A stretch of 11,429 nt of DNA. It comes from Fibrobacteria bacterium. Lineage in GTDB: Bacteria > Fibrobacterota > Fibrobacteria > UBA11236. The stretch covers positions 1 to 11,429 of the forward strand of contig JBGTHM010000094.1 of assembly GCA_041746255.1 (NCBI GenBank). Reading direction: 5' to 3'. Below the pieces are notes generated by a model. The model saw only the letters and a list, made by a program, of their open reading frames with translations. It did no database searches and was not told the origin of the DNA. Shown here piece by piece: positions 1 to 11,429 of the stretch; the stretch's first letter is position 1; each line of letters begins with the position of its first letter. The position numbers were made by a program, and so were the translations under genes.

Positions 1-1149
1 GAGGTCGATCCCGAACTGCTCCGGACCTATGAGAAACTGGGTATTCCGCTGAGCGAGCAGAAAATGCTGGCCGGCGTGGCGGTGGACGCCATCTTCGACA
101 GCGTGTCGGTGGCGACCACGTTCAAGGATAAGCTGGCGGAGTACGGGGTCATCTTCTGTCCCTTCTCCGAAGCTGTACGTGAGCACCCGGAGCTGATCGA
201 GAAGTATCTCGGTTCGGTGGTGCCCTACAATGACAATTTCTTCGCGGCGCTCAACTCCGCGGTGTTCAGCGATGGATCGTTCGTGTATATCCCCAAAGGG
301 GTGCGCTGCCCCATGGAGCTGTCCACCTACTTCCGCATCAACACCGCCGACGCCGGCCAGTTCGAGCGGACGCTGATCATCGCCGACGAAGGCGCCTACG
401 TGAGCTACCTCGAAGGGTGCACGGCACCCAAGCGCGACACCAAGCAGCTGCATGCCGCGGTGGTCGAGCTGGTGGCCATGGAAGGGGCGACCATCAAGTA
501 CTCCACGGTCCAGAACTGGTACGCGGGGGACGCCGACGGCAAGGGCGGGATCTACAATTTTGTCACCAAGCGGGGCAAGTGCGCCGGCGCCCGGTCCAAG
601 ATTTCCTGGACCCAGGTGGAAACCGGTTCGGCGATCACCTGGAAATACCCCAGCGTCATCCTCCAGGGGGACGACAGTGTGGGCGAGTTCTATTCCGTCG
701 CCGTCGTCAATGGCCGGCAGCAGGCCGATACCGGGACCAAGATGATTCACCTGGGCAAGAATACCCGCTCGAGCATCATCTCCAAAGGCATATCGGCCGA
801 CAGAAGCAACAACAGTTATCGGGGCCTGGTGCGCATAGCCAAGAACGCAACAGGTTCGCGCAACTATTCGCAATGCGACAGCATGCTGGTGGGTGACAAT
901 TGCGGAGCGCATACCTTCCCCTATATCGAAGCGGCAAATCAAACTTGTCAAGTGGAACACGAAGCCTCCACTTCCAAGATTAGCGAGAATCAATTGTTTT
1001 ATTTCCAATCGCGGGGAGTACCGCGGGAAGAAGCGATTTCCATGATCATCAACGGTTTTTGTAAGGAAGTTTTCAAGCAATTGCCGATGGAATTCGCCGT
1101 GGAAGCCCAGAAACTGCTCGCCCTGAAATTGGAAAACAGTGTGGGCTGA
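1..1149 (+). CDS. sufB: Fe-S cluster assembly scaffold protein SufB (5'-truncated at window edge)
   Basis: Frame +1 is open from base 1 ([22 protein letters not shown]...), so the ATG at 64 is internal. SufB motifs: [77 protein letters not shown]. Stop TGA at 1147-1149. Confidence 0.98.
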
Positions 1150-1204
1150 GGTTCGCATTTCCGAACCTGTTAATATCAAGTACTTCATGGCGGCGTTAGC
1201 CGCC
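1149..1204 (+). other. Two tandem intergenic hairpins between sufB and sufC
   Basis: AGGTTCG(1149-1155)/CGAACCT(1162-1168) is a 7-bp stem. GGCGGC(1189-1194)-GTTA-GCCGCC(1199-1204) is a 6-bp all-GC stem. Neither has a U-tract. Confidence 0.5.
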
Positions 1205-1223
1205 CCAACCAATGGACCTATTC

Positions 1224-1958
1224 ATGCTCGAAATCATCGACCTTCACGCCAACGTCGCCGGCACCGAAATCCTCAAGGGAATTACCCTTACGGTAAACAA
1301 AGGTGAAACCCACGCCATCATGGGACCCAACGGTTCCGGTAAAAGCACCCTGTCCAAGATTCTGGCGGGTCATCCGGATTATGAGGTCACATCGGGTCAG
1401 GTCCTTTTCAATGGGGAGGATTTACTGACTTTGGAATCGGATGTACGGGCCCGCAAAGGTTTGTTCCTGGGGTTCCAATATCCCGTGGAGATTCCAGGTG
1501 TGAACAATGCGGAGTTCCTGCGCGCCGCCTACAACGCGCGCCTTCGCGATAAGGGATTGGAAGAGCTCGATCCGCTCGATTTCGACGAATTGCTGGACGG
1601 GAAAATGGCTGAGTTGACCATGGACAAACGTTTCAAGGAACGGGCCATCAATGAGGGTTTTTCCGGGGGAGAAAAGAAGCGCAACGAAATTTTACAAATG
1701 GCGGTGCTGAATCCGAAATTAGCCATATTGGATGAAACCGATTCAGGTCTGGATGTCGACGCGTTGAAAGTGGTCGCGGGAGGCATCAATCGCCTGCGCA
1801 ATCCCGAGAACGCCATAATTTTGATCACGCATTACCAACGCCTGCTCGACTATGTGCAACCCGATCAAGTGCATATCCTCAATCGGGGTGTTATCGTGCA
1901 ATCCGGGGGCAAGGAATTGGCGTTGGAAGTGGAGGCGCAAGGCTATGACCGAGCGTAA
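1224..1958 (+). CDS. sufC: Fe-S cluster assembly ABC-type ATPase SufC
   Basis: Walker A GPNGSGKST, FQYPVEIPGV, signature FSGGEKKRNE, Walker B ILDETDSGLD, switch ITHYQRLL. Start 1224 (MLEIIDLHA, typical SufC N-terminus, with GGA about 7 nt upstream) is preferred over 1212. Confidence 0.97.
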   Translation: MLEIIDLHANVAGTEILKGITLTVNKGETHAIMGPNGSGKSTLSKILAGHPDYEVTSGQVLFNGEDLLTLESDVRARKGLFLGFQYPVEIPGVNNAEFLRAAYNARLRDKGLEELDPLDFDELLDGKMAELTMDKRFKERAINEGFSGGEKKRNEILQMAVLNPKLAILDETDSGLDVDALKVVAGGINRLRNPENAIILITHYQRLLDYVQPDQVHILNRGVIVQSGGKELALEVEAQGYDRA

Positions 1959-3267
1959 CCAGACGACGATGGTTCAACAACAAACGCCGCTCGATTCGGG
2001 CTCGGAAGCGTTGCGGGAATTACGTGCTCAAGCCCGGCACGCGTATGAACGTCTGGGAACCCCGCATATAAAAGCCGAAGAATTCAATTATGTCCGTACC
2101 TCGGAAATTTCACCTTTTCTTTTACCGGCGGCTTCCCTTGCCACAGTTGCAAGCTGCCATCCCTCGGTGGAGGAGGTACAAAAGCATATCCTACCCGAGT
2201 CCCGCCAATCTTATCTCGTGCTGGTGGATGGTCAATACCAGGAATCGCTATCGCGACCTCCAAAAGGACTGGAAATCAACCCAGTAGCCACCCTAGGTGA
2301 AGCCGAGGCCGCGTCAATGCTGGCTCCGTTTCTTCTCATGGAGGAAGAAGATGCCTTGAGCGCATTGGCCATAGCTCAATGTGAACACCCGTTGCACCTT
2401 TCCGTCCCCGCCAAGTGGAACTCGCCTACGCCCATCCAGGTGTTGGCGTATGCGGCTTCCCCTGCCCCGCGCACGGACATAGCTCTGATGCTTACCGCGG
2501 GCTCGCTATCCGAAAGCCGCTTTACCTTTTTGACGGCGGGTCCGGAAGCCATGCCGGAATCAAAACGCATGGATAATATTTCCATCCGTTTTGATATCGA
2601 GGAGGGTGCCTCGCTACGCTGGCAACAGGCCGAGAGAGCTTTGGACGATACCCTGCATCTATGCAAACTCAATGGCAGGCTCGCAAGAGATAGCCGTTTT
2701 TCCGCCTTGAGCGCCTCTCCGGGATCGCATTTGACGCGGCGCGTATTTACTTTCGCCTTGGCCGGCGAAGGCGTCGACCTCGAATTGAAAAGCGTAACCG
2801 CAGCCGCCGGACAGCGACAGTCGCATAGCCTGGTGCAAATCAACCACCTGGCGCCCCATTGCACCAGCCGCCAACAATTCAAGAACGTGGTCGCGGAAAA
2901 ATCACGTTCCAGCGTGAACGGAACCATCCATGTCGCCAAGGCCGCCCAGCAAACCAACGCCTCGCAGCTAATCAACAATCTCATGCTCTCGGACGATGCG
3001 CATGCCGACACCAAACCCCGGTTGATGATTTTCGCCGACGACGTAAAATGTTCCCATGGCGCCACCGTGGGCCGCCTCGATGCGGAACAAATCTTTTATT
3101 TGCGGGCACGTGGGCTTACCGCCGAGCAGGCACGAACCTACCTCACCGTGGCTTTCATCGAAGAAGTCTTGGAGTCCGCGCACTCACCGTCCCTACGCGC
3201 CCTTCTTGAGTCTTCCCTGATTGGGCCCTTGATGCCTCACTTGGCCCATGCCAAAAAGGAGCGCTGA
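1945..3267 (+). CDS. sufD: Fe-S cluster assembly protein SufD
   Basis: C-terminal SufBD beta-helix motifs: INHLAPHCTSRQQFKNVV, NNLMLS, DTKPRLMIFADDVKCSHGATVG, FYLRARG. ATG 1945 follows SD GGAGG (1931-1935) and overlaps the sufC end by 14 nt. The ORF-track start at 1852 lies deep inside sufC. Confidence 0.95.
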   Translation: MTERNQTTMVQQQTPLDSGSEALRELRAQARHAYERLGTPHIKAEEFNYVRTSEISPFLLPAASLATVASCHPSVEEVQKHILPESRQSYLVLVDGQYQESLSRPPKGLEINPVATLGEAEAASMLAPFLLMEEEDALSALAIAQCEHPLHLSVPAKWNSPTPIQVLAYAASPAPRTDIALMLTAGSLSESRFTFLTAGPEAMPESKRMDNISIRFDIEEGASLRWQQAERALDDTLHLCKLNGRLARDSRFSALSASPGSHLTRRVFTFALAGEGVDLELKSVTAAAGQRQSHSLVQINHLAPHCTSRQQFKNVVAEKSRSSVNGTIHVAKAAQQTNASQLINNLMLSDDAHADTKPRLMIFADDVKCSHGATVGRLDAEQIFYLRARGLTAEQARTYLTVAFIEEVLESAHSPSLRALLESSLIGPLMPHLAHAKKER

Positions 3268-3268
3268 C

Positions 3269-4498
3269 ATGTTGAGCATCGATACCGCCGCGTTGTTGGA
3301 TATCAAAAAAGATTTCCCCCTGCTGAACCGCGAGGGCGAAGAACCCCTGTATTACCTCGACAGCGCCGCCACCACGCAAAAACCTGCCGTCGTTATCGAC
3401 GCCATGGACAAGTTCTACCGGGAAGAATACGGCACCGTGCGCCGGGGAGTCTATCGCCTCAGCGAAAAAGCCACGGCAGCCTATGAAGGCACCCGTAAAA
3501 AAGTAGCCGCCTTTCTTGGCGCGGAATCCGAAAAGGAAATCATCTATACCGGCGGTACCACCGATTCCATCAATCTGGTAGCCTATGCCTATGCCCGAAA
3601 ATTCCTGAGCGCGGGCGACGAAATTTTATTGACGGAAATGGAACATCACGCCAATATCGTTCCCTGGCAACTGGCCGCCCAGGAAACCGGCGCGGTCATC
3701 AAAGTGGTTCCCATTACCGATGAAGGGGAGCTCGATTTGGAGGCCTTTACCAAGCTTCTTAATCCTCGTACCCGTATGGTGGCCGTCACCTATCTATCCA
3801 ATGCGCTGGGGACCATCAACCCTATCCGCCAAATCGTCAGGGATGCCCATTCCGTCGGAGCCGTGGTGCTGGTGGACGGCGCCCAGTCCACTCCGCATAT
3901 GCAAGTCAATTTGCGCGAATTGGACGCCGACTTCTACGCCTTTTCCGGCCATAAGATTTTCGGGCCTACCGGAATCGGGATTCTTTACGGCAAAATGGCG
4001 CTGCTGGAAAAAATGCCTCCCTTCAAAGCCGGGGGAGACATGATTATCCGTGTCACCTTCGCGAAAACCACCTACCAACAACCGCCGCATCGCTTCGAAG
4101 CGGGAACCCCTCCCATCGCCGAAGTGGTCGGATTGGGAGCCGCCCTCGATTATGTGCAATCGGTGGGCATACACAATATCGCCCGGCATGAGAAAGCTTT
4201 GCTGGATTACGGAACCGAGATAATCCAACAAGTACCGGGTCTGCGTCTTATCGGTACCGCCCGGAACAAAGCCTCCGTACTTTCCTTTCACATGGAAGAC
4301 GTTCACCCGCATGATATCGGCACCCTGCTCGATCAACAGGGCATTGCCATCCGGGCCGGCCACCATTGCGCCCAGCCGGTGATGGATCGTTTCGGAATTC
4401 CGGCCACCGCCCGCGCCTCACTGGGGCCCTACAACACCCCTGAAGATCTGGACGCCCTGGTCCGGGGTCTTTTGCATATTCGTGAGGTTTTCGCCTGA
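3269..4498 (+). CDS. sufS: SufS-type (class II) cysteine desulfurase
   Basis: YLDSAATTQKP, MEHHANIVPWQ, PLP-lysine FSGHKIFGPTGIG, FEAGTP, HPHD, catalytic RAGHHCA. ATG 3269 follows SD AAGGAG (3256-3261), 1 nt after the sufD stop. Confidence 0.97.
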   Translation: MLSIDTAALLDIKKDFPLLNREGEEPLYYLDSAATTQKPAVVIDAMDKFYREEYGTVRRGVYRLSEKATAAYEGTRKKVAAFLGAESEKEIIYTGGTTDSINLVAYAYARKFLSAGDEILLTEMEHHANIVPWQLAAQETGAVIKVVPITDEGELDLEAFTKLLNPRTRMVAVTYLSNALGTINPIRQIVRDAHSVGAVVLVDGAQSTPHMQVNLRELDADFYAFSGHKIFGPTGIGILYGKMALLEKMPPFKAGGDMIIRVTFAKTTYQQPPHRFEAGTPPIAEVVGLGAALDYVQSVGIHNIARHEKALLDYGTEIIQQVPGLRLIGTARNKASVLSFHMEDVHPHDIGTLLDQQGIAIRAGHHCAQPVMDRFGIPATARASLGPYNTPEDLDALVRGLLHIREVFA

Positions 4499-4953
4499 TG
4501 TCGCGCGGAAGCGAGCTCTACCAGCAAGTCATTCTGGACCATAACCGCAACCCCCGAAATTTTCGGGCTTTGGAAAATACGGAATACGTGTGTGAGGGAC
4601 ACAACCCCCTTTGCGGCGACAATATCACCGTATACCTGAAGCTGGAGGCGGACGAAACGATATCCGATATCAGCTTCCAAGGCAACGGTTGCGCCATCTC
4701 GAAAGCCAGTGCCTCCATGATGACGGCTTTTCTGAAGGGTAAAAAGCTGGAAGACGCGAAAGTGGTTTTTCAGGAATTCCATGAAATGGTGGTCGGCGAT
4801 TTCGATCCGGAAACCGCTCCGCACCATTTGGGCAAACTCAAGTTATTTCATGGAGTTAAGGATTATCCATCCCGCATCAAATGCGCTACACTGGCGTGGC
4901 ATGCCTTCATGGGTGCTCTTAAACGCGAAAAAATCGCATCCACCGAGGCGTAA
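4498..4953 (+). CDS. sufU: SUF system NifU-family sulfur-transfer protein SufU
   Basis: LYQQVILDH, NPLCGD, GCAISKASAS, RIKCATLAW. Long spacer before the third Cys and no IscU LPPVK motif. TGATG stop/start overlap with sufS. Confidence 0.95.
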   Translation: MSRGSELYQQVILDHNRNPRNFRALENTEYVCEGHNPLCGDNITVYLKLEADETISDISFQGNGCAISKASASMMTAFLKGKKLEDAKVVFQEFHEMVVGDFDPETAPHHLGKLKLFHGVKDYPSRIKCATLAWHAFMGALKREKIASTEA

Positions 4954-4985
4954 AGCCTATTCCCACGGCTTTTTAGCCCTTTTTT
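4952..4985 (+). terminator. Weak candidate intrinsic terminator of the suf operon
   Basis: AAAGCC(4952-4957)/GGCTTT(4967-4972) stem with a 9-nt loop, followed by T-rich runs up to 4985. The stem has only 3 GC pairs. Confidence 0.3.
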
Positions 4986-5020
4986 CCCCGCTTCCCACAC
5001 TTTAACTCCGACGCAGGTTT

Positions 5021-5038
5021 TGACTACTTTTATAGTCA
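5021..5038. promoter_or_regulatory. Palindromic candidate operator TGACTA-N6-TAGTCA
   Basis: Perfect 6-bp inverted repeat in the intergenic region, ending 8 bp upstream of the sigma54-like motif. Confidence 0.4.
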
Positions 5039-5046
5039 TTCCCAAG

Positions 5047-5061
5047 TGGCGGCGAAATTGC
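5047..5061 (+). promoter_or_regulatory. Candidate sigma54 (-24/-12) promoter for the tubulin-like gene
   Basis: TGGCGGCGAAATTGC: GG(5048-5049) and GC(5060-5061) are separated by exactly 10 nt, with TGGC and TTGC matching the RpoN consensus TGGCAC-N5-TTGC. The implied TSS near 5073 lies just before SD AAAGGA (5077-5082) and ATG 5090. Confidence 0.4.
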
Positions 5062-5089
5062 CGGCAAACCCTACATAAAGGAAAAAGTC

Positions 5090-6388
5090 ATGTCCAATCG
5101 CCTGAAATTCGCAGTAGTAGGACTAGGCCAATGCGGGGGAAACCTTGCCAACGCCTTCGCCAAGTATGGGTACCCCAGCTTAGCTATCAATACCTCCGTA
5201 CTTGACCTGAAGGATTTGGCGAATATTCCGGATAATCGCAAGGTGCATATCCCCTTGAAGGACAGCGACGGGGCCGGAAAAGATCCCCGCATTGGCGAAC
5301 AGGCGTTGCGCACCCACCAATCCTATCTCGTTTCCAACTTACAAGAGTTCGTGCAAGGCGCGGATGCCATTCTCCTCACAGCGGGACTGGGTGGCGGTAC
5401 GGGTAGCAATGTCGCTTATCTCGGGGAAATGTTGAAGCAAATCGGACTTCCGGTTGTTGTCCTTACTACCATCCCCACTCAAAATGAATCCGCCCTGGCC
5501 AAAGTGAATGCCCTGCGCGGCGTCAACCGCCTCATCGGAGAAAATTTCGAGAGCTTCATCATCATCGACAACGGAAAAATCCTTTCCCTTTTTCCCGAAG
5601 GCAATTTGGCCACCTTCTACACACAAGCCAACGATTACGTGGCCCGCACCTTTTCCAGTCTTAACTCCATGTCCACCGAAATGGCCAGCCGCAGCCTTAT
5701 CAGCTTCGACAACGAAGATTTCCGCAAGGTACTGCTCTCTCATGGCATTTTGATTTTCGGAGAGAAGGAATTGGCTACCAGCGATTTGTCGACCTTGGAC
5801 GATATCCTCCCCCGCTTGCGCGGAATCTGGGAAGCGGGGGGGCTCATGGCCGAAGGTTTCGACCATACCACCGCAGCCGTGGGCGCGGTGAGCATCTATG
5901 CTCCCGCCGCGCTTTTGCAGAAAACTTCCAGCCGTTTTCTGAACCTGCTTGGCGACGAGTTCAAAACTTTGACCAATGGAGCCACCTGTTATTTCGGCCT
6001 TTATGAGCACAACAACCCCTCGACGGTGAAGATTACCAGTATGCTGGGTCGCTTGGCCATTCCCGTGCGCTTACAGGAAATGCTCGCAGAAGCGTCCAGT
6101 GAAGGTAAAAATCTCAGCCAAAAAATCCAGAAGGAGCTTCCCCGTCTCGATATCTCGGCCTTGGACGATATGGAACTTTTCTCGATGGGGCCAGAGCCCT
6201 TAGTCGATACGACCCCACCAGCAGCCAAAACCCAGGCATTGGCTCGGGAAGATTCCGATGCGGAAACCTCCAACCCCACCGGAAGAGAATCCAGTTTTTT
6301 TTCCTCGGATGAATTACTCCAGAATGAGGGTAACCAAAGTTACACGCTGGAAGAGTACGTCAGGCTGAAAAAGATGAAATCCCCTTGA
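5090..6388 (+). CDS. Tubulin/FtsZ-superfamily GTPase, non-canonical (TubZ/RepX/CetZ-like), 432 aa
   Basis: T1 GLGQCGGN (aa 11-18), T2 INTSxxDL (33-40), T3 GAGKDPRIG (61-69), T4 GLGGGTGSN (99-107), T5 PxxxE (129-133), T6 IIDN (158-161), T7 SLISFDNED (202-210). These are followed by an activation domain, a long helix (aa ~325-349) and an acidic low-complexity tail. SD AAAGGA upstream. Confidence 0.92.
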   Translation: MSNRLKFAVVGLGQCGGNLANAFAKYGYPSLAINTSVLDLKDLANIPDNRKVHIPLKDSDGAGKDPRIGEQALRTHQSYLVSNLQEFVQGADAILLTAGLGGGTGSNVAYLGEMLKQIGLPVVVLTTIPTQNESALAKVNALRGVNRLIGENFESFIIIDNGKILSLFPEGNLATFYTQANDYVARTFSSLNSMSTEMASRSLISFDNEDFRKVLLSHGILIFGEKELATSDLSTLDDILPRLRGIWEAGGLMAEGFDHTTAAVGAVSIYAPAALLQKTSSRFLNLLGDEFKTLTNGATCYFGLYEHNNPSTVKITSMLGRLAIPVRLQEMLAEASSEGKNLSQKIQKELPRLDISALDDMELFSMGPEPLVDTTPPAAKTQALAREDSDAETSNPTGRESSFFSSDELLQNEGNQSYTLEEYVRLKKMKSP

Positions 6389-6434
6389 GAGAAAAAAAGA
6401 AGTATAATAAGCGCAAAACAAGCGAGAGGCGCAT

Positions 6435-6629
6435 ATGCTTTTATTGATATCCCTGGTTTGCGTTTTCAGTACCTTCGGTGGAATCCTGCTTGGCCAGTCA
6501 CTGAAAGGTCTGCTTATCCTTAAGAACGGTCTCGAAAGCGGCCAGAAGAAAATGTTCGCCATTGGCCTAGGCGCGGTCGCAGTGGCGCTTATTCTATCCA
6601 TGGTCGGACTTTTCCTGCCCTCCCGCTAA
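6435..6629 (+). CDS. Small hypothetical membrane protein (64 aa, two predicted hydrophobic helices)
   Basis: SD-like GAGAGG (6424-6429) 5 nt before ATG. Hydrophobic segments at aa ~1-20 and ~40-62 are separated by a Lys-rich loop. Tandem stops TAATAG. It fills an otherwise empty intergenic gap. Confidence 0.7.
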   Translation: MLLLISLVCVFSTFGGILLGQSLKGLLILKNGLESGQKKMFAIGLGAVAVALILSMVGLFLPSR

Positions 6630-6762
6630 TAGCCTTGTAAAATAGGCCCCATAAACCGGTTGCTCCCGACGGTACCCGCCCGGGATCCCGATATTCCCCA
6701 CCCCAAAATACGGATTAAATCCTCCGCCGATAAGTCAAAATGGACTTGTGGTTTTGGGGAAT

Positions 6763-6791
6763 TGAATAATGTACCATAGATGCATTATTCA
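6763..6791. promoter_or_regulatory. Operator-like inverted repeat TGAATAATG-N11-CATTATTCA overlapping a possible sigma70 promoter
   Basis: Perfect 9-bp arms (6763-6771 and 6783-6791), 10 of 11 matches when extended inward. A possible promoter TGGACT(6741-6746)-N18-AATAAT(6765-6770) overlaps the left arm. The repeat ends 76 bp upstream of the ACAD start. Confidence 0.55.
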
Positions 6792-6867
6792 CTCTCCGAA
6801 AGAACTCTTGAGAGAGATTCTGGAAGAGCAACATTCAGGGCCGAAACACCCTGGTAAGGAGTTGGAA

Positions 6868-8772
6868 ATGTCCGTTGAACCCCAGGAAGCCGAATTCAAT
6901 TTGAAAATCGACACCTCGAAGATGTCGAAGGCGAAGGCGGATGCCATGATGGTCGCCGAGTCTTCGCGCGAAGCCAAATGGGAGAACCCGAGTTTCGCGG
7001 GCGGCCTGTTCATGGGAAAATTCCAACCCGAACTCATCGTCCCTTACCCGGAGCAGAGCGCAGAGGATAAAGCCATCGGCGATAAAATAATCAAGGAGGT
7101 GTCGGCCTTCTTGAAGGCCAATCTGGACGCCGACGAAGCGGATAGAACACGGGAAATTCCCCAGAAGGTCATGGACGAGTTTACCCGCATGAAATTGTGG
7201 GCCATGAAAATACCCAAGGAATATAATGGCCTGGGCCTCAGCCAGGTCAATTACAACCGCATCGTGGGTTGCGTGGCCTCTTATTGCGGCTCCACCGCGG
7301 TATGGCTTTCCGCCCACCAAAGCATCGGAGTGCCGCAGCCCCTGAAAATGTTCGGCACTCCGGAACAAAAAAAGAAATACCTGCCCCGTTTCGCCGAGGG
7401 CGCGATTTCCGCATTCGCGCTTACAGAACCGGACGTGGGATCCGACCCCGCCAAGATGGCCACCACAGCCACCCCAACCGAAGACGGAAACCATTATATC
7501 ATCAACGGGCGCAAACTCTGGTGCACCAACGGCCCTAAAGCCGATATCCTGGTGGTGATGGCCCGCACGCCCTCGATCAATCGCAAGGGTCGTGAAATCA
7601 CGCAAATAACCGCCTTCATCGTGGAAAAGGGGACGCCGGGTCTCGAGGTGGAACATCGTTGCGACTTCATGGGAATCCGCGCCATTCAAAACGGTTTGAT
7701 GAAATTCACCAACGTAAAAGTGCCTAAGGAAAACATCATTCTCGGTCCGGGTAAGGGATTGAAACTGGCTTTGACCACGCTCAACACCGGTCGTCTCACT
7801 CTTCCCGCAGCAGCGGTGGGCATGGCCCGCCAGTGCCTGACCATCGTCCGAAATTGGAGCAACGAACGCGTGCAATGGGGTCTGCCCATCGGCAAGCACG
7901 AGGCCATCTCCAACAAAATCGCCTATATCGCCAGCACCACTTTCGCCATGGAAGGCGTAACCTGGCTGACCTCGGCCATGGCCGACAAAGGCGGAACCGA
8001 TATCCGCATCGAGGCCGCCATGGCCAAAATGTTCTGTTCCGAGGCGGCGTGGAAAATCATGGACGAAACCGTGCAAATCCGAGGCGGCCGGGGATATGAA
8101 ACCGCCGAGTCTTTGAAGGGACGCGGTGAAGCGCCGATTCCCGCGGAAAGAATGTTGCGCGACTGCCGCATCAACCGTATTATCGAAGGTACTACCGAAA
8201 TCATGCACCTGTTCCTGGCTCGCGAGGCTCTTGATCCGCATATGCAAGTGGCCGCGGAAATCATGCTGAAGCATTTACCCCTCGGCCAAAGATTGAAAGC
8301 GGGTTTGCGCACGGCGAATTTCTACAGCCGCTGGTATCCCGCGCAATGGTTGAACGGAAGTCTATTTTCGACTTATAGCGAATTCCATCCCAAGTTGTCG
8401 CGGCATATGGGCTATGTGGAACGCACCTCGCACCAACTGGCGCGCAGCATCTTCCATTCCATGGGCATGTATCAGAACACGTTGGAGCGAAGGCAAATGC
8501 TGCTCTCCCGCTTCGTAGATATCGGCACGGAACTTTTCGCCATGGCGGCCGCCTGTGCCCGCGCAAAAATGCTGCTGGACCGCAATCCCGAGGTGCTCGA
8601 ACCCATGCACCTCGCCAATTATTTTTGCAAAGACGCCCGTCGTCGCATCGAGAATCTATTCCTGGCCGTTTCGGATAATGACGACCGTCAGGGCAATAAA
8701 ATCGCCAAGGCGGTCATGAACGGCGATTACAGATGGATGGAAACCGATATCATCCCTTGTTTGGATACCTGA
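6868..8772 (+). CDS. Acyl-CoA dehydrogenase, long FadE10/VLCAD/ACAD9-like form (634 aa)
   Basis: SAHQSIG, AFALTEPDVGSD, INGRKLWCTNG, RVQWGLPIGKHEAI, VQIRGGRGYE, catalytic RIIEGTTEI and a C-terminal helical extension. N-terminal AESSRE..W..PSF..LF.G.F resembles mycobacterial FadE10 (from memory). Strong SD TAAGGAG (6855-6861) supports ATG 6868 rather than 6769. Confidence 0.93.
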   Translation: MSVEPQEAEFNLKIDTSKMSKAKADAMMVAESSREAKWENPSFAGGLFMGKFQPELIVPYPEQSAEDKAIGDKIIKEVSAFLKANLDADEADRTREIPQKVMDEFTRMKLWAMKIPKEYNGLGLSQVNYNRIVGCVASYCGSTAVWLSAHQSIGVPQPLKMFGTPEQKKKYLPRFAEGAISAFALTEPDVGSDPAKMATTATPTEDGNHYIINGRKLWCTNGPKADILVVMARTPSINRKGREITQITAFIVEKGTPGLEVEHRCDFMGIRAIQNGLMKFTNVKVPKENIILGPGKGLKLALTTLNTGRLTLPAAAVGMARQCLTIVRNWSNERVQWGLPIGKHEAISNKIAYIASTTFAMEGVTWLTSAMADKGGTDIRIEAAMAKMFCSEAAWKIMDETVQIRGGRGYETAESLKGRGEAPIPAERMLRDCRINRIIEGTTEIMHLFLAREALDPHMQVAAEIMLKHLPLGQRLKAGLRTANFYSRWYPAQWLNGSLFSTYSEFHPKLSRHMGYVERTSHQLARSIFHSMGMYQNTLERRQMLLSRFVDIGTELFAMAAACARAKMLLDRNPEVLEPMHLANYFCKDARRRIENLFLAVSDNDDRQGNKIAKAVMNGDYRWMETDIIPCLDT

Positions 8773-8780
8773 ACCGGATT

Positions 8781-10337
8781 TCAAAATTTGGAGTGGAAAT
8801 GCCGGTGACGCTCTAAAGAAACCCCTCCCCGTGTCTCATGAGGAGGGAATGGTTCCGGCCGCTTGGCTAAAGGTGAAAGCGAGTCCGCCGCACTTAAACC
8901 CGGAGCGAAACGCCCGTGTTTGCGGAGATTGGTAAAGGTCTGAGATAGACTATCCCTGGAAAAGGCCCCGGGGAGTCCAAATAGCGATTCCAGGAAACCT
9001 TCCGAGGGCACGGTCGCTAAATTGGAAACCGCTTGGATGAATTCGTGACGATGAAAAAGCGAACCGTGCCGCCGATGCAATAGTCGCACCAAATCGAATA
9101 CCGAGTGCACCCCTCCGCTGTTTTCGAAGATATGCCGATCCAATATCATGGAAGCCTGTGCCCCTTTGTTATAAACCAATCCCAACATGCCGAAAGAATC
9201 AGGCTGAAACTTGAATCCGGAATCCAGCGGGAGGAAAAGTCCTTCCCGAATCCGCTCCGACCTCAACGGTACGGACTGAACGGCCGGAACTTCAGAAAGA
9301 TCCATCAGCATTCTCGCGGCGAATTCGGTATCGGAGATCAATCCCGTCTGAGCCCCCAGCAGCAAGGCTAGATAAGAGGTCAATCCCTCTTTGAACCAAG
9401 GCTCTCCCCTATCGCCCGTAAGCACACCTACGAAAGTATGGATAAACTCATGCAAATGCACTTCGGCATTTAGCCTGATTTCACTTTGGATCCAATAACC
9501 CTGTGTTCCTTCAATTCCCGTAAATACCGAATTGGTTCCTACATAATAAGGCCCTTCCGGAAGGGGTAATAATGAATCTTCCACTATCCCCAGGCACTGG
9601 GCGACCAGGGGTTCCATCAGTTCTAACCCATTTTCCGAAGTCGTTTCATACAAACTCACCTTCCTCCCCCGATGACTGAAGACTATCTCCCGTAAAGGAT
9701 TGAAAGCGCCACGCACGAACATCAATTCATAATTGTTGTGCAGCGCGGAGTGGCGGGCATGTCCGACAAAACCGCGTGGGCCGCCGCCATCGAGGATAAG
9801 GCCGATGGAAACCGGCAAGCGCCATCGTAAAGCGGGGTCGGATGACAAATACGGTAAGGCGAAAAAATAGCCTCCATCAAAGAGGCTCACCTGGTTCGGG
9901 GAGTCGGGGATCGGCAGCGCGCATCCCCGCTGATCGGAGCGAGCATGTTGGACCGTATATTCAATCCGTACCGTACTTTCCGGAAATAGCCAAAGGTTAT
10001 CCGTCGCCTCCGCATCAGGTGCGGCTCCTATGAGCGGAAGTCTCTTCCCTATCGCATCATAGGCCTGAACCGATTCAGGAGCAACTCCAATTAAGGGCAT
10101 CCTAGGATTGTCGGCGTAATAAACGGGAAACAAAAAAGCGCGTGGGATATCGCGGGGCCATCGAAGAATTCGGATGGAAATACTGCACGCCTTTCCCTCC
10201 TCAGCCGCTTCTTTCACGGCATAATCCAGTCGAGGCGAAAGGGAATCGGTATTGTCGGTAGTTATCGGCGTAACGGTTTCACGGAAACAACTGGATAGGC
10301 AAACGCCAAATACCGCAAGGTAAAAGAATTTAAACAA
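8781..10337 (-). CDS. Putative lipoprotein zinc metallopeptidase (gluzincin, M61/M1-like), ~518 aa
   Basis: HEFIH zinc motif, third ligand in PWFKEGLTSY 16 aa later, downstream VYNKGA, upstream GIE in place of GGLEH/GxMEN. A TTG start at 10337 (GGGA 5 nt upstream) gives MFKFFYLAVFGVCLSS|C, a signal peptide II with lipobox LSSC, and overlaps the TSUP stop by 8 nt. Confidence 0.75.
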   Translation of the reverse strand: MFKFFYLAVFGVCLSSCFRETVTPITTDNTDSLSPRLDYAVKEAAEEGKACSISIRILRWPRDIPRAFLFPVYYADNPRMPLIGVAPESVQAYDAIGKRLPLIGAAPDAEATDNLWLFPESTVRIEYTVQHARSDQRGCALPIPDSPNQVSLFDGGYFFALPYLSSDPALRWRLPVSIGLILDGGGPRGFVGHARHSALHNNYELMFVRGAFNPLREIVFSHRGRKVSLYETTSENGLELMEPLVAQCLGIVEDSLLPLPEGPYYVGTNSVFTGIEGTQGYWIQSEIRLNAEVHLHEFIHTFVGVLTGDRGEPWFKEGLTSYLALLLGAQTGLISDTEFAARMLMDLSEVPAVQSVPLRSERIREGLFLPLDSGFKFQPDSFGMLGLVYNKGAQASMILDRHIFENSGGVHSVFDLVRLLHRRHGSLFHRHEFIQAVSNLATVPSEGFLESLFGLPGAFSRDSLSQTFTNLRKHGRFAPGLSAADSLSPLAKRPEPFPPHETRGGVSLERHRHFHSKF

Positions 10338-11100
10338 AAGTGTCCCAAACCAGCTTGACCGAAACGACAACCCCCATAAAGACAAGAAATCGTCTGATCC
10401 AGATTTCTCCTTTTTGGATTTGCCATCTCACTCCCCAAAATCCTCCCAAAACATTTCCCAGCGCCAGTGCGAATGCCATGGGCCAGTGGATTTTCTCAAA
10501 CCCCGTGAAAACCAGTATGGAGACAGCGGTAAACAGCACGGTACACGCCACCTTGAGGCCGTTTATACGTAAAAGATTCATGGAACTGAAGAAGCGGAAA
10601 AGAAAAATCATGAGGAATCCGGAGCCCACCTGTAAAAAACCTCCGTAGAGACCCAGGAGGAAATAACTTAACATGCTCATCGGGGATGCTTTCAGCTCGG
10701 CTGCTTCGGACTCGGACTGCGGAGTGAACGACATACCGAAAAAGGTTGCCGCCACCACGGTCAGCACCACCACCGCGAGCAGCATATTGAAGGCGCGATC
10801 CGGAATTGCCACCGCGCCCCAAGCTCCCAGCAAAGCACCCAACCCCACCGGTATCGCCAGCCTTCGGAGCGAAAGTGTTGGGACCAAACCCGCGCGAGAC
10901 ATGGAGTAGGTGGCGGAGAGGGAGCCTGCCAGGATGCCCAGACGGTTGGTCCCGTTAGCCATGGCACTGGGAAGTCCGAGGAATATGAGTAGGGGTAGAC
11001 TCAAAACGGAACCGCCGCCGGCGATGGCATTTATAAAGGAAACCAGTAGTCCGATACCGAACAGAACCGGATAATGCCACCATTCGAAAACGAAATTCAT
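10330..11100 (-). CDS. TauE/SafE family (TSUP) membrane transporter
   Basis: 256 aa with about 8 hydrophobic helices. Family motifs NAIAGGGSVLSLPLL...ANGTN and LGLYGGFLQVGSG...NGLK in two repeated halves. Confidence 0.92.
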   Translation of the reverse strand: MNFVFEWWHYPVLFGIGLLVSFINAIAGGGSVLSLPLLIFLGLPSAMANGTNRLGILAGSLSATYSMSRAGLVPTLSLRRLAIPVGLGALLGAWGAVAIPDRAFNMLLAVVVLTVVAATFFGMSFTPQSESEAAELKASPMSMLSYFLLGLYGGFLQVGSGFLMIFLFRFFSSMNLLRINGLKVACTVLFTAVSILVFTGFEKIHWPMAFALALGNVLGGFWGVRWQIQKGEIWIRRFLVFMGVVVSVKLVWDTFV

Positions 11101-11122
11101 TCCGGCAGGGGTCGTCGTAAAA

Positions 11123-11429
11123 CTAGGGTGATACGCGCGAATCGGGAGAAAAATGGGAATACAGCATGGGTGGATTCAACCTTCCGGATGAATAGAGACG
11201 ACCGAGCGTATGCCTGAGCTCGTCGATGGCCGTCAAGGCGCGGATTTGCCCTTCTTCACCCGGTTCCAGTCGTAGAATGAGGTTGTGCATGGCCATCAAG
11301 TCGACTTTTTCTGGAGCCTTGCCCGGCACAAAACCATCGCCTGCACGGGTCACCCTCCGGGTAAGAATATCCAGATCGACCAATGCGGCGAGACAGGAGT
11401 CCAGGTAACTTTCGGGCATATCCAACCGC
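11123..11429 (-). CDS. 3' end of a protein with a C-terminal Rrf2-like winged-helix domain (probably YihY/BrkB-Rrf2 fusion); 5'-truncated
   Basis: The frame is open to the window edge (R-L-D-M-P-E-S-Y-L...). MPESYLDSCLAALVDLDIL...GDGFVPGKAPEKVDL parallels the Rrf2 pattern IPxxYLxxILxxLxxxGLV...GGYxLAxxPxxIxL. No Fe-S Cys triad follows the wing. Confidence 0.55.
   Translation of the reverse strand, partial: RLDMPESYLDSCLAALVDLDILTRRVTRAGDGFVPGKAPEKVDLMAMHNLILRLEPGEEGQIRALTAIDELRHTLGRLYSSGRLNPPMLYSHFSPDSRVSP

Follow-up and report, generated by a model that had tools for sequence, protein, structure and literature searches.

The locus described here raises the question of what a second tubulin-type gene does on a bacterial chromosome whose division FtsZ is encoded elsewhere. 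To our knowledge, few tubulin-superfamily proteins of bacterial chromosomes have been characterised besides FtsZ, namely BtubAB and, by prediction only, FtsZl1/2. The gene lies on contig JBGTHM010000094.1 of a Fibrobacteria bacterium (assembly GCA_041746255.1), whose positions 1 to 11,429 on the forward strand constitute the stretch of DNA analysed here (the window, 11,429 nucleotides). A preliminary description, drawn up from the letters of this DNA, had proposed an orphan, domesticated TubZ/CetZ-like filament protein with a new cellular role. With a probability of roughly 70%, we consider its product, P0001, to represent Fibrobacterota in a chromosomal family of TubZ-like GTPases that has not been described before and to be a protein which would form a GTP-driven filament and carry a partner-docking tail.

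The tubZ-like gene occupies positions 5090..6388 of the + strand, stop codon included, according to the list of open reading frames (ORFs) and its translation, and encodes 432 amino acids (aa), the first Met aligning with the N-termini of the orthologues. It is a real, intact gene under strong purifying selection. A Tubulin/FtsZ GTPase domain covers aa 8-166 (5111..5587, +; Pfam PF00091, E 1.1e-17, bit score 65.4, cut-off 33) and is modelled by AlphaFold2 (AF2) with a predicted local distance difference test score (pLDDT) of 88-97. The nucleotide-loop motifs named in the preliminary description, GLGQCGGN, NTSVLDL and the others, were located where it had placed them. Conservation was judged from an alignment of 34 family members with identities down to 27%. 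Hereby invariant are G11, G13, Q14, G16, G17 and N18 of the nucleotide-binding loop GLGQCGGN (aa 11-18; 5120..5143, +), as well as G101, G102, G103, T104 and G105 of the tubulin signature GLGGGTGS (aa 99-106; 5384..5407, +). NTSVLDL (aa 34-40), GAGKDP (aa 61-66) and IIDNGK (aa 158-163) complete the set, and D160, N161 and N181 are likewise invariant.

Further downstream, the acidic loop SFDNEDF (aa 205-211; 5702..5722, +) holds the invariant residues D207 and D210, with E209 and R212 nearly invariant, and pairs with the equivalent RepX segment in the phmmer alignment. We take GLGQCGGN, GLGGGTGS and SFDNEDF to be the loops T1, T4 and T7 (the synergy loop), names that are ours and not assigned by a tool. 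In FtsZ and TubZ, two acidic residues of the T7 loop complete the GTPase site of the neighbouring subunit, and by analogy the acidic residues of SFDNEDF may have this catalytic role. A TubZ-like C-terminal domain follows at aa 200-330 (5687..6079, +; Pfam PF22453, E 2.8e-7, bit score 31.1, cut-off 26), whose model superposes on 4ei7 and 2xka, and the core closes with a long C-terminal helix as in TubZ (aa 326-349; 6065..6136, +), assigned as helix by DSSP in the AF2 model. Structural alignments to TubZ chains extend to model residues 345-349, and A335, E338 and K345 are invariant. As first described, FtsZ's PFxFEG block and DIPxFL-type tail are both absent from P0001: IPTQNES stands at the position of the former, with P129 and E133 invariant, and the protein does not end in an FtsZ-type tail.

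By sequence, profile and fold alike, the closest solved relative is RepX, the TubZ of Bacillus cereus (4ei7). With phmmer, aa 5-295 of P0001 match 4ei7 at E 7.9e-22, followed by archaeal FtsZ at ~1e-18. A family profile matches RepX 4ei7 over positions 6-338 at E 3.9e-40, then CetZ2 (2e-28), CetZ1 (1e-27), FtsZ of M. jannaschii (2e-25), bacterial FtsZ (~1e-21), TubZ of phage c-st (1e-16) and TubZ of B. thuringiensis (1.5e-13). The AF2 model, built from an alignment of 34 sequences (pLDDT 79.5, predicted template modelling score 0.74), is confident over aa 1-349. Its top Foldseek match is again 4ei7 (E 2.6e-26, template modelling score 0.80 normalised to the target), and VIA-align superposes 340 residues (aa 1-345) on this structure with Z 39.5 and a root-mean-square deviation of 2.4; the Z scores then fall from TubZ of B. 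thuringiensis (37.6), CetZ2 (36.0) and phage TubZ (32.6) to FtsZ (~30) and Odin and eukaryotic tubulin (~28). The predicted fold of P0001, terminal helix included, is TubZ-like. The similarity to TubZ/RepX throughout the core that the preliminary description had noted is thus borne out by sequence, profile and structure, and the TubZ-type fold with 4ei7 in first place emerges from the profile and AF2/Foldseek searches it had suggested. A complex prediction in which aa 1-352 were paired with a second copy, GTP and Mg, run without controls, scored 0.00 and is counted neither for nor against polymerisation. PADLOC matched neither the gene nor the genes around it, and PHROGs gave only weak matches for the protein (a family of unknown function at 3e-6, PhuZ at 1e-3).

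The gene is no orphan, contrary to the first impression. In an exhaustive search of representatives of 50% identity clusters, 96 clusters passed a threshold of E <= 1e-30 and 948 passed one of E <= 1e-10, and relatives are encoded on 175 stretches of species-representative genomes across several phyla. In a search of 5.8 billion proteins the homologues fall into three bands of identity to P0001: orthologues at 56-88%, mostly of ~409-457 aa and in part named as proteins of Fibrobacteria or Fibrobacterota metagenome-assembled genomes (MAGs); proteins of 448-490 aa with HEAT repeats at the end at 40-46%; and proteins of ~400-700 aa at 30-37%, the named ones of which come from MAGs of Deltaproteobacteria, Myxococcales or Polyangiaceae. 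The best 80 of the 175 stretches, all of them MAG records, were analysed in detail and repeat this division. Twenty of these loci lie at 56-86% identity (18 with a Fibrobacter- label), nine at 40-46% (seven labelled Nitrospirota or Nitrospirae) and 51 at 30-37%, the last mostly labelled Myxococcota, Polyangiales, Sandaracinaceae or delta-proteobacteria and including two Latescibacterota and one Schekmanbacteria. In the ESM Atlas the nearest cluster, which has no name, consists of a Myxococcota 'hypothetical protein' in which both Pfam domains recur. One unpublished genome (G021) is among the genomes and loci counted here and below; no claim depends on it alone.

A phylogeny inferred under LG+C20+F+G4 (posterior mean site frequencies) from 47 rows and 421 columns, built without CetZ, PhuZ, artubulin, tubulin, BtubAB and pBtoxis TubZ, places these proteins apart from both established bacterial groups that it contains. 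Five FtsZ rows, among them those of the same genome and of E. coli, split off with 100/100 support on a branch of 1.56, so that P0001 falls outside FtsZ in the phylogeny that had been called for, and four plasmid RepX-like rows (B. thuringiensis, Planococcus, Lysinibacillus, Niallia) form a 100/100 clade of their own with a stem of 1.55. The family of the tubZ-like gene is a clade of 24 rows (98/99). The Fibrobacterota members of this clade, five rows with 100/100 support and a stem of 0.74, belong to a nine-row group together with the HEAT-tailed proteins (96/89), and 11 rows of Myxococcota type make up a further clade (100/99). The same groups were recovered in a quick tree of 91 rows. Domestication from a plasmid does not follow from this topology: because the family is separate from RepX and the order of the clades is left open, the direction of any transfer between plasmid and chromosome cannot be read from it.

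Within the phylum the distribution is narrow. An orthologue occurs in 17 of 41 relatives, comprising all sampled genomes of the genera g1, g2, g3, g4 (10/10), g6 and g8 and one of the ten genomes of g5; the remaining 24 gave FtsZ-level matches only, or none. Across the phylum, 21 of 251 sampled genomes carry it, all in families f1 and f3 (2 of 21 families), and it was absent from the 113 genomes of f5 and the 46 of f15. This narrow range, along with the nesting among Nitrospirota-labelled HEAT-tailed proteins, suggests one acquisition in the ancestor of f1 and f3, which would entail a later loss in the small-genome genus g5.

The tubZ-like gene is neither the division protein of the cell nor a type III partition module of a plasmid or phage. 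The genome (4.59 Mb, 130 contigs) holds two genes with a Tubulin domain, P0001 and, on contig C60, the separate canonical ftsZ that had been anticipated. The latter encodes 463 aa with Tubulin and FtsZ_C domains and the tail DYETPAFLRHQAD, and directly follows a 411-aa FtsA; the tubZ-like gene is not near this cluster. P0001 itself scores 97.4 bits against the FtsZ equivalog TIGR00065 (cut-off 295.2), and a Pfam search found no PF12327 (FtsZ_C) match in it. In one family of the class (locus L124, G032:C1:5786000-5790500), the FtsZ-type gene has an open frame of 939-972 aa, far longer than usual for FtsZ, with an FtsZ-type tail still at its end.

As to partition, each of four fetched plasmid RepX loci has a gene of 102-111 aa directly upstream of repX, whereas at our locus no tubR-like gene was found: sufU stands upstream, and the small overlapping ORFs are without family match. 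Between 4800 and 6900 no iteron array was found, only two-copy repeats of 10-31 nt at chance level, all but one of them coding, and a Pfam search of the window revealed no mobility gene. In these respects, as in its host-like composition (GC 0.527, GC at third codon positions 0.628, both within the range of the neighbouring genes), the preliminary description was accurate. A plasmid collection returned 208 matching records, all below 30% identity and all Bacillales-type, with no close copy among them, and a phage collection returned Bacillus phage G only, in two records. The survey of orthologue neighbourhoods showed chromosomal genes and no plasmid or phage copies bearing tubR/tubC. Hence, none of the sequence-based observations that the preliminary description had named as speaking against its proposal was made.

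What the preliminary description got right was the ORF, its motifs and its neighbours; what it overlooked was the end of the protein. Behind the terminal helix lies a disordered, hypervariable linker of ~65 residues (aa 350-416; 6137..6337, +; pLDDT <50 over aa 350-417), which differs between orthologues in sequence and length. It leads to a conserved C-terminal peptide, SYTLEEYVRLKKMKSP (aa 417-432; 6338..6385, +), presumably a docking tail, in which the AF2 model shows a short helix at aa 420-429. Of the 44 orthologues P0001-P0044, 42 carry the tail motif [SAP]Y[STA]xE[ED]Y[VI][KR]xK[KR], the exceptions being P0031, which is cut off, and P0042, which is aberrant. Selection follows the same division. 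Compared with a same-genus orthologue of 86% protein identity, the ratio of non-synonymous to synonymous substitution rates (dN/dS) is 0.024 for the core (aa 1-349), 0.41 for the linker (aa 350-415) and 0.058 over the final 17 codons, values that are rough because the dS of the closest pair is ~1.2-2.1. Core and tail are constrained and the linker between them is relaxed, as is also the case in FtsZ.

Sister branches carry other modules at the position of the tail. HEAT repeats occupy it most widely, a PilM_2/FtsA-type actin-fold domain stands there in two clusters (P0123, P0274), a Cds6_C NTF2-like domain ends four proteins (P0165, P0166, P0170, P0181), and a ParA/MinD-type ATPase and an HD_5 domain are found in P0172 and P0190, respectively. 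With such varied domains in one place, the family appears to combine a shared filament core with an adaptor that can be exchanged. Beyond the preliminary description, the conservation of the tail peptide and this exchange of C-terminal adaptors are the new points. We also considered the tail of P0001 as an amphipathic membrane-targeting helix and rejected this: its best 11-residue hydrophobic moment is 0.40 at a mean hydrophobicity of -0.3, and many internal helices of the protein exceed this moment, with values up to 0.79. The modest moment makes a protein partner likelier than direct membrane binding.

Several architectures in the wider family may be recorded alongside. P0123 (818 aa) and P0274 (850 aa) consist of a TubZ-like core, a linker and the PilM_2/FtsA-type domain and so combine a tubulin-like and an actin-like module in one polypeptide; the core of P0123 is 60% identical to the unfused P0058. 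One member of a related clade, P0231, has an N-terminal glycosyltransferase. Five more distant TubZ-like proteins (P0211, P0215, P0238, P0248, P0252) bear an intein (Intein_splicing, with LAGLIDADG or Hom_end) inside the GTPase domain. PilM as a co-occurring partner was examined and dropped, since each of the 41 relatives has a Pfam PilM_2 match and strong PilM-type hits extend to families without the tubZ-like gene.

The following mechanism appears to us the most likely one. GTP-bound P0001 subunits would assemble head to tail, with the invariant D207 and D210 of the SFDNEDF loop completing the GTPase site of the next subunit, which would give a dynamic filament of the TubZ/FtsZ kind. The flexible linker and the tail peptide would tether this filament to a protein partner, and the family as a whole would share the filament core and exchange the adaptor. 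A wider proposal, to which we give even odds, is that the chromosomal lineage with members in MAGs labelled Myxococcota, Nitrospirota, Fibrobacterota, Latescibacterota and others is a cytoskeletal one, composed of filament core, linker and exchangeable cargo or anchor adaptor, i.e. a new filament system beside FtsZ and possibly a chromosomal pool related to the TubZ of plasmids and phages.

A number of points weigh against the proposed mechanism. What was observed is the gene, its fold, family membership, distribution, synteny and selection pattern; that the protein hydrolyses GTP and polymerises, that its tail acts as an adaptor and that it has a role in the cell are extrapolated from these by analogy. 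The dS of the closest pair is near saturation. The conservation of so short a tail could serve regulation, degradation or self-interaction instead. The 47-row tree leaves open the branching order at the base of the TubZ-like clades and, because CetZ, PhuZ, artubulin and tubulin are not in it, also the exact position of the family in the superfamily. Finally, a family-wide operon partner did not emerge, as clustering of the ORFs of the 80 loci gave clade-specific neighbours only.

The tail also bears on an alternative that we regard as unlikely, in which the protein is an accessory filament of the divisome: its tail would imitate the C-terminal peptide of FtsZ and dock on FtsA or another FtsZ-binding hub, and the TubZ-like polymer would be recruited to, or compete at, the division site. 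The tail SY[ST]LE[ED]YV[KR]LKK does share spacing with the tail DYETPAFLR of the cell's own FtsZ (Tyr, four residues, aromatic, aliphatic, Arg), FtsZ of a relative (G025) has DIPAYIRLKKRK at the end of its tail, the P0123 and P0274 clusters are fused to a PilM_2/FtsA-type actin-fold domain, and core, disordered linker and conserved C-terminal peptide together are the build of FtsZ. However, the likeness of the tails spans few residues, does not include the conserved Pro of FtsZ tails and may be due to chance; the tubZ-like gene is not near the ftsA-ftsZ cluster, and most other branches of the family end in HEAT repeats and not in a peptide. Independently of this, the tail of P0001 (6338-6385) and the FtsZ peptides of the same order (L001 1459-2850; L121) can be described as alike in spacing and basic end, by mimicry or by chance.

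We consider it very unlikely that P0001 is a tubulin-fold GTPase that stays soluble, without polymerising, and serves as a switch or regulator. Polymerisation within the family is, admittedly, a matter of analogy, yet both sides of the presumed subunit interface are invariant, the nucleotide pocket on one and, on the other, the acidic loop that would insert into the pocket of the neighbour, and the long TubZ-type helix is retained. We know of no characterised superfamily member with nucleotide pocket, acidic loop and long helix that does not form filaments.

The neighbourhood of the gene invites a further explanation. Upstream lie sufB, sufC, sufD, sufS and sufU, the last gene of this sufBCDSU operon (4498..4953, +) being assigned by TIGR01994 (E 7e-47, above cut-off). 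Downstream follow orf64, an ORF of 64 aa whose translation is hydrophobic with two helices (6435..6629, +), and a 667-aa acyl-CoA dehydrogenase (ACAD; 6769..8772, +) with the Pfam ACAD N, M and C domains and an ACAD9/VLCAD-type C-terminal domain (PF21343). Family matches and the 64-aa translation agree with the sufU, small membrane protein and ACAD named at the outset. All are on the same strand, with gaps of 136 bp from sufU to the tubZ-like gene and 46 bp from there to orf64. Among 13 loci, sufU is directly upstream of the orthologue in 12 (the exception, G003, is without suf genes upstream) and orf64-ACAD directly downstream in 12 (the 13th ends at the contig end), so that the full order sufU-tubZ-like gene-orf64-ACAD is found in 11. 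The position of the locus is the same across seven genera, including the carrier G012 with its single-contig chromosome of 3.75 Mb.

Co-transcription with the suf operon or with orf64-ACAD, the filament organising or positioning those enzymes, would account for the shared strand, the short gaps and the order kept in 11 of 13 loci, but the gene-less relatives make this highly improbable. Three g5 genomes without the tubZ-like gene retain sufBCDSU-orf64-ACAD with the gene cleanly missing (in one, G022, the contig ends after orf64), and three genomes of family f2 have orf64-ACAD with neither suf nor the tubZ-like gene. Altogether orf64 is present in 22 of 41 relatives, six of which are without the tubZ-like gene, and suf genes are missing upstream of the G003 orthologue. 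Outside this phylum, homologues are flanked by unrelated genes. The Nitrospirota-type loci have a SLOG cluster-4 gene downstream or nearby in six of nine cases; one Myxococcota group is flanked by greA (9 loci) and ruvX, a second by a large protein with MopE/FGE-sulfatase domains (8 loci) and an epimerase, and a third group (6 loci) by a uvrA-like gene, NUDIX, a 260-aa protein of unknown function, leuA and msrA. Since the gene-less relatives retain sufU-orf64-ACAD, these neighbours are position markers and not partners. The presence of orf64 and ACAD in six genomes without the tubZ-like gene is likewise why we reject orf64 as its membrane anchor. A scan of 4400-7000 gave 2 promoter-like and 5 terminator-like sites, with 1.8 and 3.6 expected from shuffles; no operon boundary is called around the gene. 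A search of sequencing runs with the stretch listed one DNA run, perhaps the one from which this DNA itself came, and no RNA run.

Some further features of these loci deserve mention. The orf64-ACAD pair is conserved whether or not suf operon and tubZ-like gene lie beside it, and the ACAD is 65-92% identical across the order. On the opposite strand, the window encodes a TauE exporter and a 534-aa protein (8781-10385, -) with a weak match to M61 glycyl-aminopeptidase (E 9e-4, below cut-off), and some relatives encode a counterpart of 36-62% identity beside their ACAD. Because sufD as listed shares 107 bases (1852-1958) with sufC, its real start codon probably lies further downstream. The SLOG cluster-4 (LDcluster4) gene of the Nitrospirota-type loci encodes ~150 aa and lies directly downstream in L049, L050, L052 and L073 and nearby in L051 and L071.

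A last alternative is that the gene survives, by chance or as a selfish leftover, from the TubZRC partition system of a plasmid or prophage that had once integrated. This would fit a plasmid RepX/TubZ as closest solved relative and an occurrence in 2 of 21 Fibrobacterota families, nested in the proteins of another phylum, that suggests one horizontal acquisition, but is scarcely credible for a gene with neither tubR-like gene, iteron array nor mobility gene at its locus or in the window, with host-like composition, strong purifying selection and one position across seven genera including a closed chromosome, and with nothing above 30% identity in the plasmid collection and only Bacillus phage G in the phage collection.

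We therefore favour a chromosomal TubZ-like filament protein with a partner-docking tail. A family of this kind, conserved, under selection and present on the chromosomes of several phyla, points to cellular filament functions that have not yet been sought, and it offers a testable comparison set for the origin of TubZ. The Fibrobacterota branch is its simplest form (432 aa, peptide tail) and thus convenient for in-vitro polymerisation and for peptide-based fishing of the partner. A literature search, covering sources other than subscription journals and supplements, brought up no description of the present family in the texts it reached. The available text of Santana-Molina et al. 2023 (PMC9871819) treats TubZ as a plasmid protein of Firmicutes and contains no mention of Fibrobacter or Myxococc-, and that of a 2026 paper on Asgard tubulin (PMC13394414) names only known families.

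Among the known systems, FtsZl1 and FtsZl2 are likewise non-FtsZ paralogues of the tubulin superfamily on bacterial chromosomes. According to the accessible part of Makarova and Koonin 2010 (PMC2875224), FtsZl1 is without recognisable T6-H7 elements and has genes for vWA, OmpA and GTPase proteins as neighbours; FtsZl2 comes from proteobacteria and extends C-terminally over a region of ~300 aa. P0001 differs from FtsZl1 in that its core is complete, that it has no match to Tubulin_2 (PF13809) and that vWA, OmpA and GTPase neighbours are absent from the window. The tubulins of conflict systems occur with vWA, GTPase and HSP70 genes, as stated in the accessible part of Kaur et al. 2020 (PMC7159879); in view of the absence of such neighbours at the P0001 locus, we reject this assignment.

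CetZ (4b45, 4b46, 3zid) resembles P0001 in being chromosomal and additional to FtsZ, and it is the second-best match of the family by profile (CetZ2) and by structure (CetZ2, Z 36.0). Like P0001, CetZ has a Gln in the first glycine-rich loop. CetZ is archaeal, whereas P0001 is bacterial and shows no match to Pfam CetZ_C (PF21011) at E <= 0.01. FtsZ belongs to the same superfamily and has the same build of core, disordered linker and short conserved C-terminal peptide, but it stands apart at 100/100 in the tree and P0001 is without FtsZ_C. Closest by descent are the proteins of the same 98/99 clade, the HEAT-tailed Nitrospirota-labelled ones at 40-46% identity to P0001 and the Myxococcota-labelled ones at 30-37%; unlike its HEAT-tailed relatives, the Fibrobacterota branch is without the HEAT module and ends in a short conserved peptide.

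TubZ/RepX (4ei7, 2xka, 3j4s) shares with P0001 the two-domain tubulin fold, the TubZ-type C-terminal domain and the long terminal helix followed by a flexible tail, and by analogy the dynamics of the filaments are probably similar. Identity between the two is only ~25%, however, and they form separate clades. TubZ/RepX is accompanied by tubR and tubC on plasmids and phages, whereas P0001 is chromosomal and without tubR or tubC repeats. The different tail peptide of P0001, together with the HEAT and other domains of its sisters, implies that its filament would bind a protein partner, and not a DNA-bound adaptor as in TubZ.

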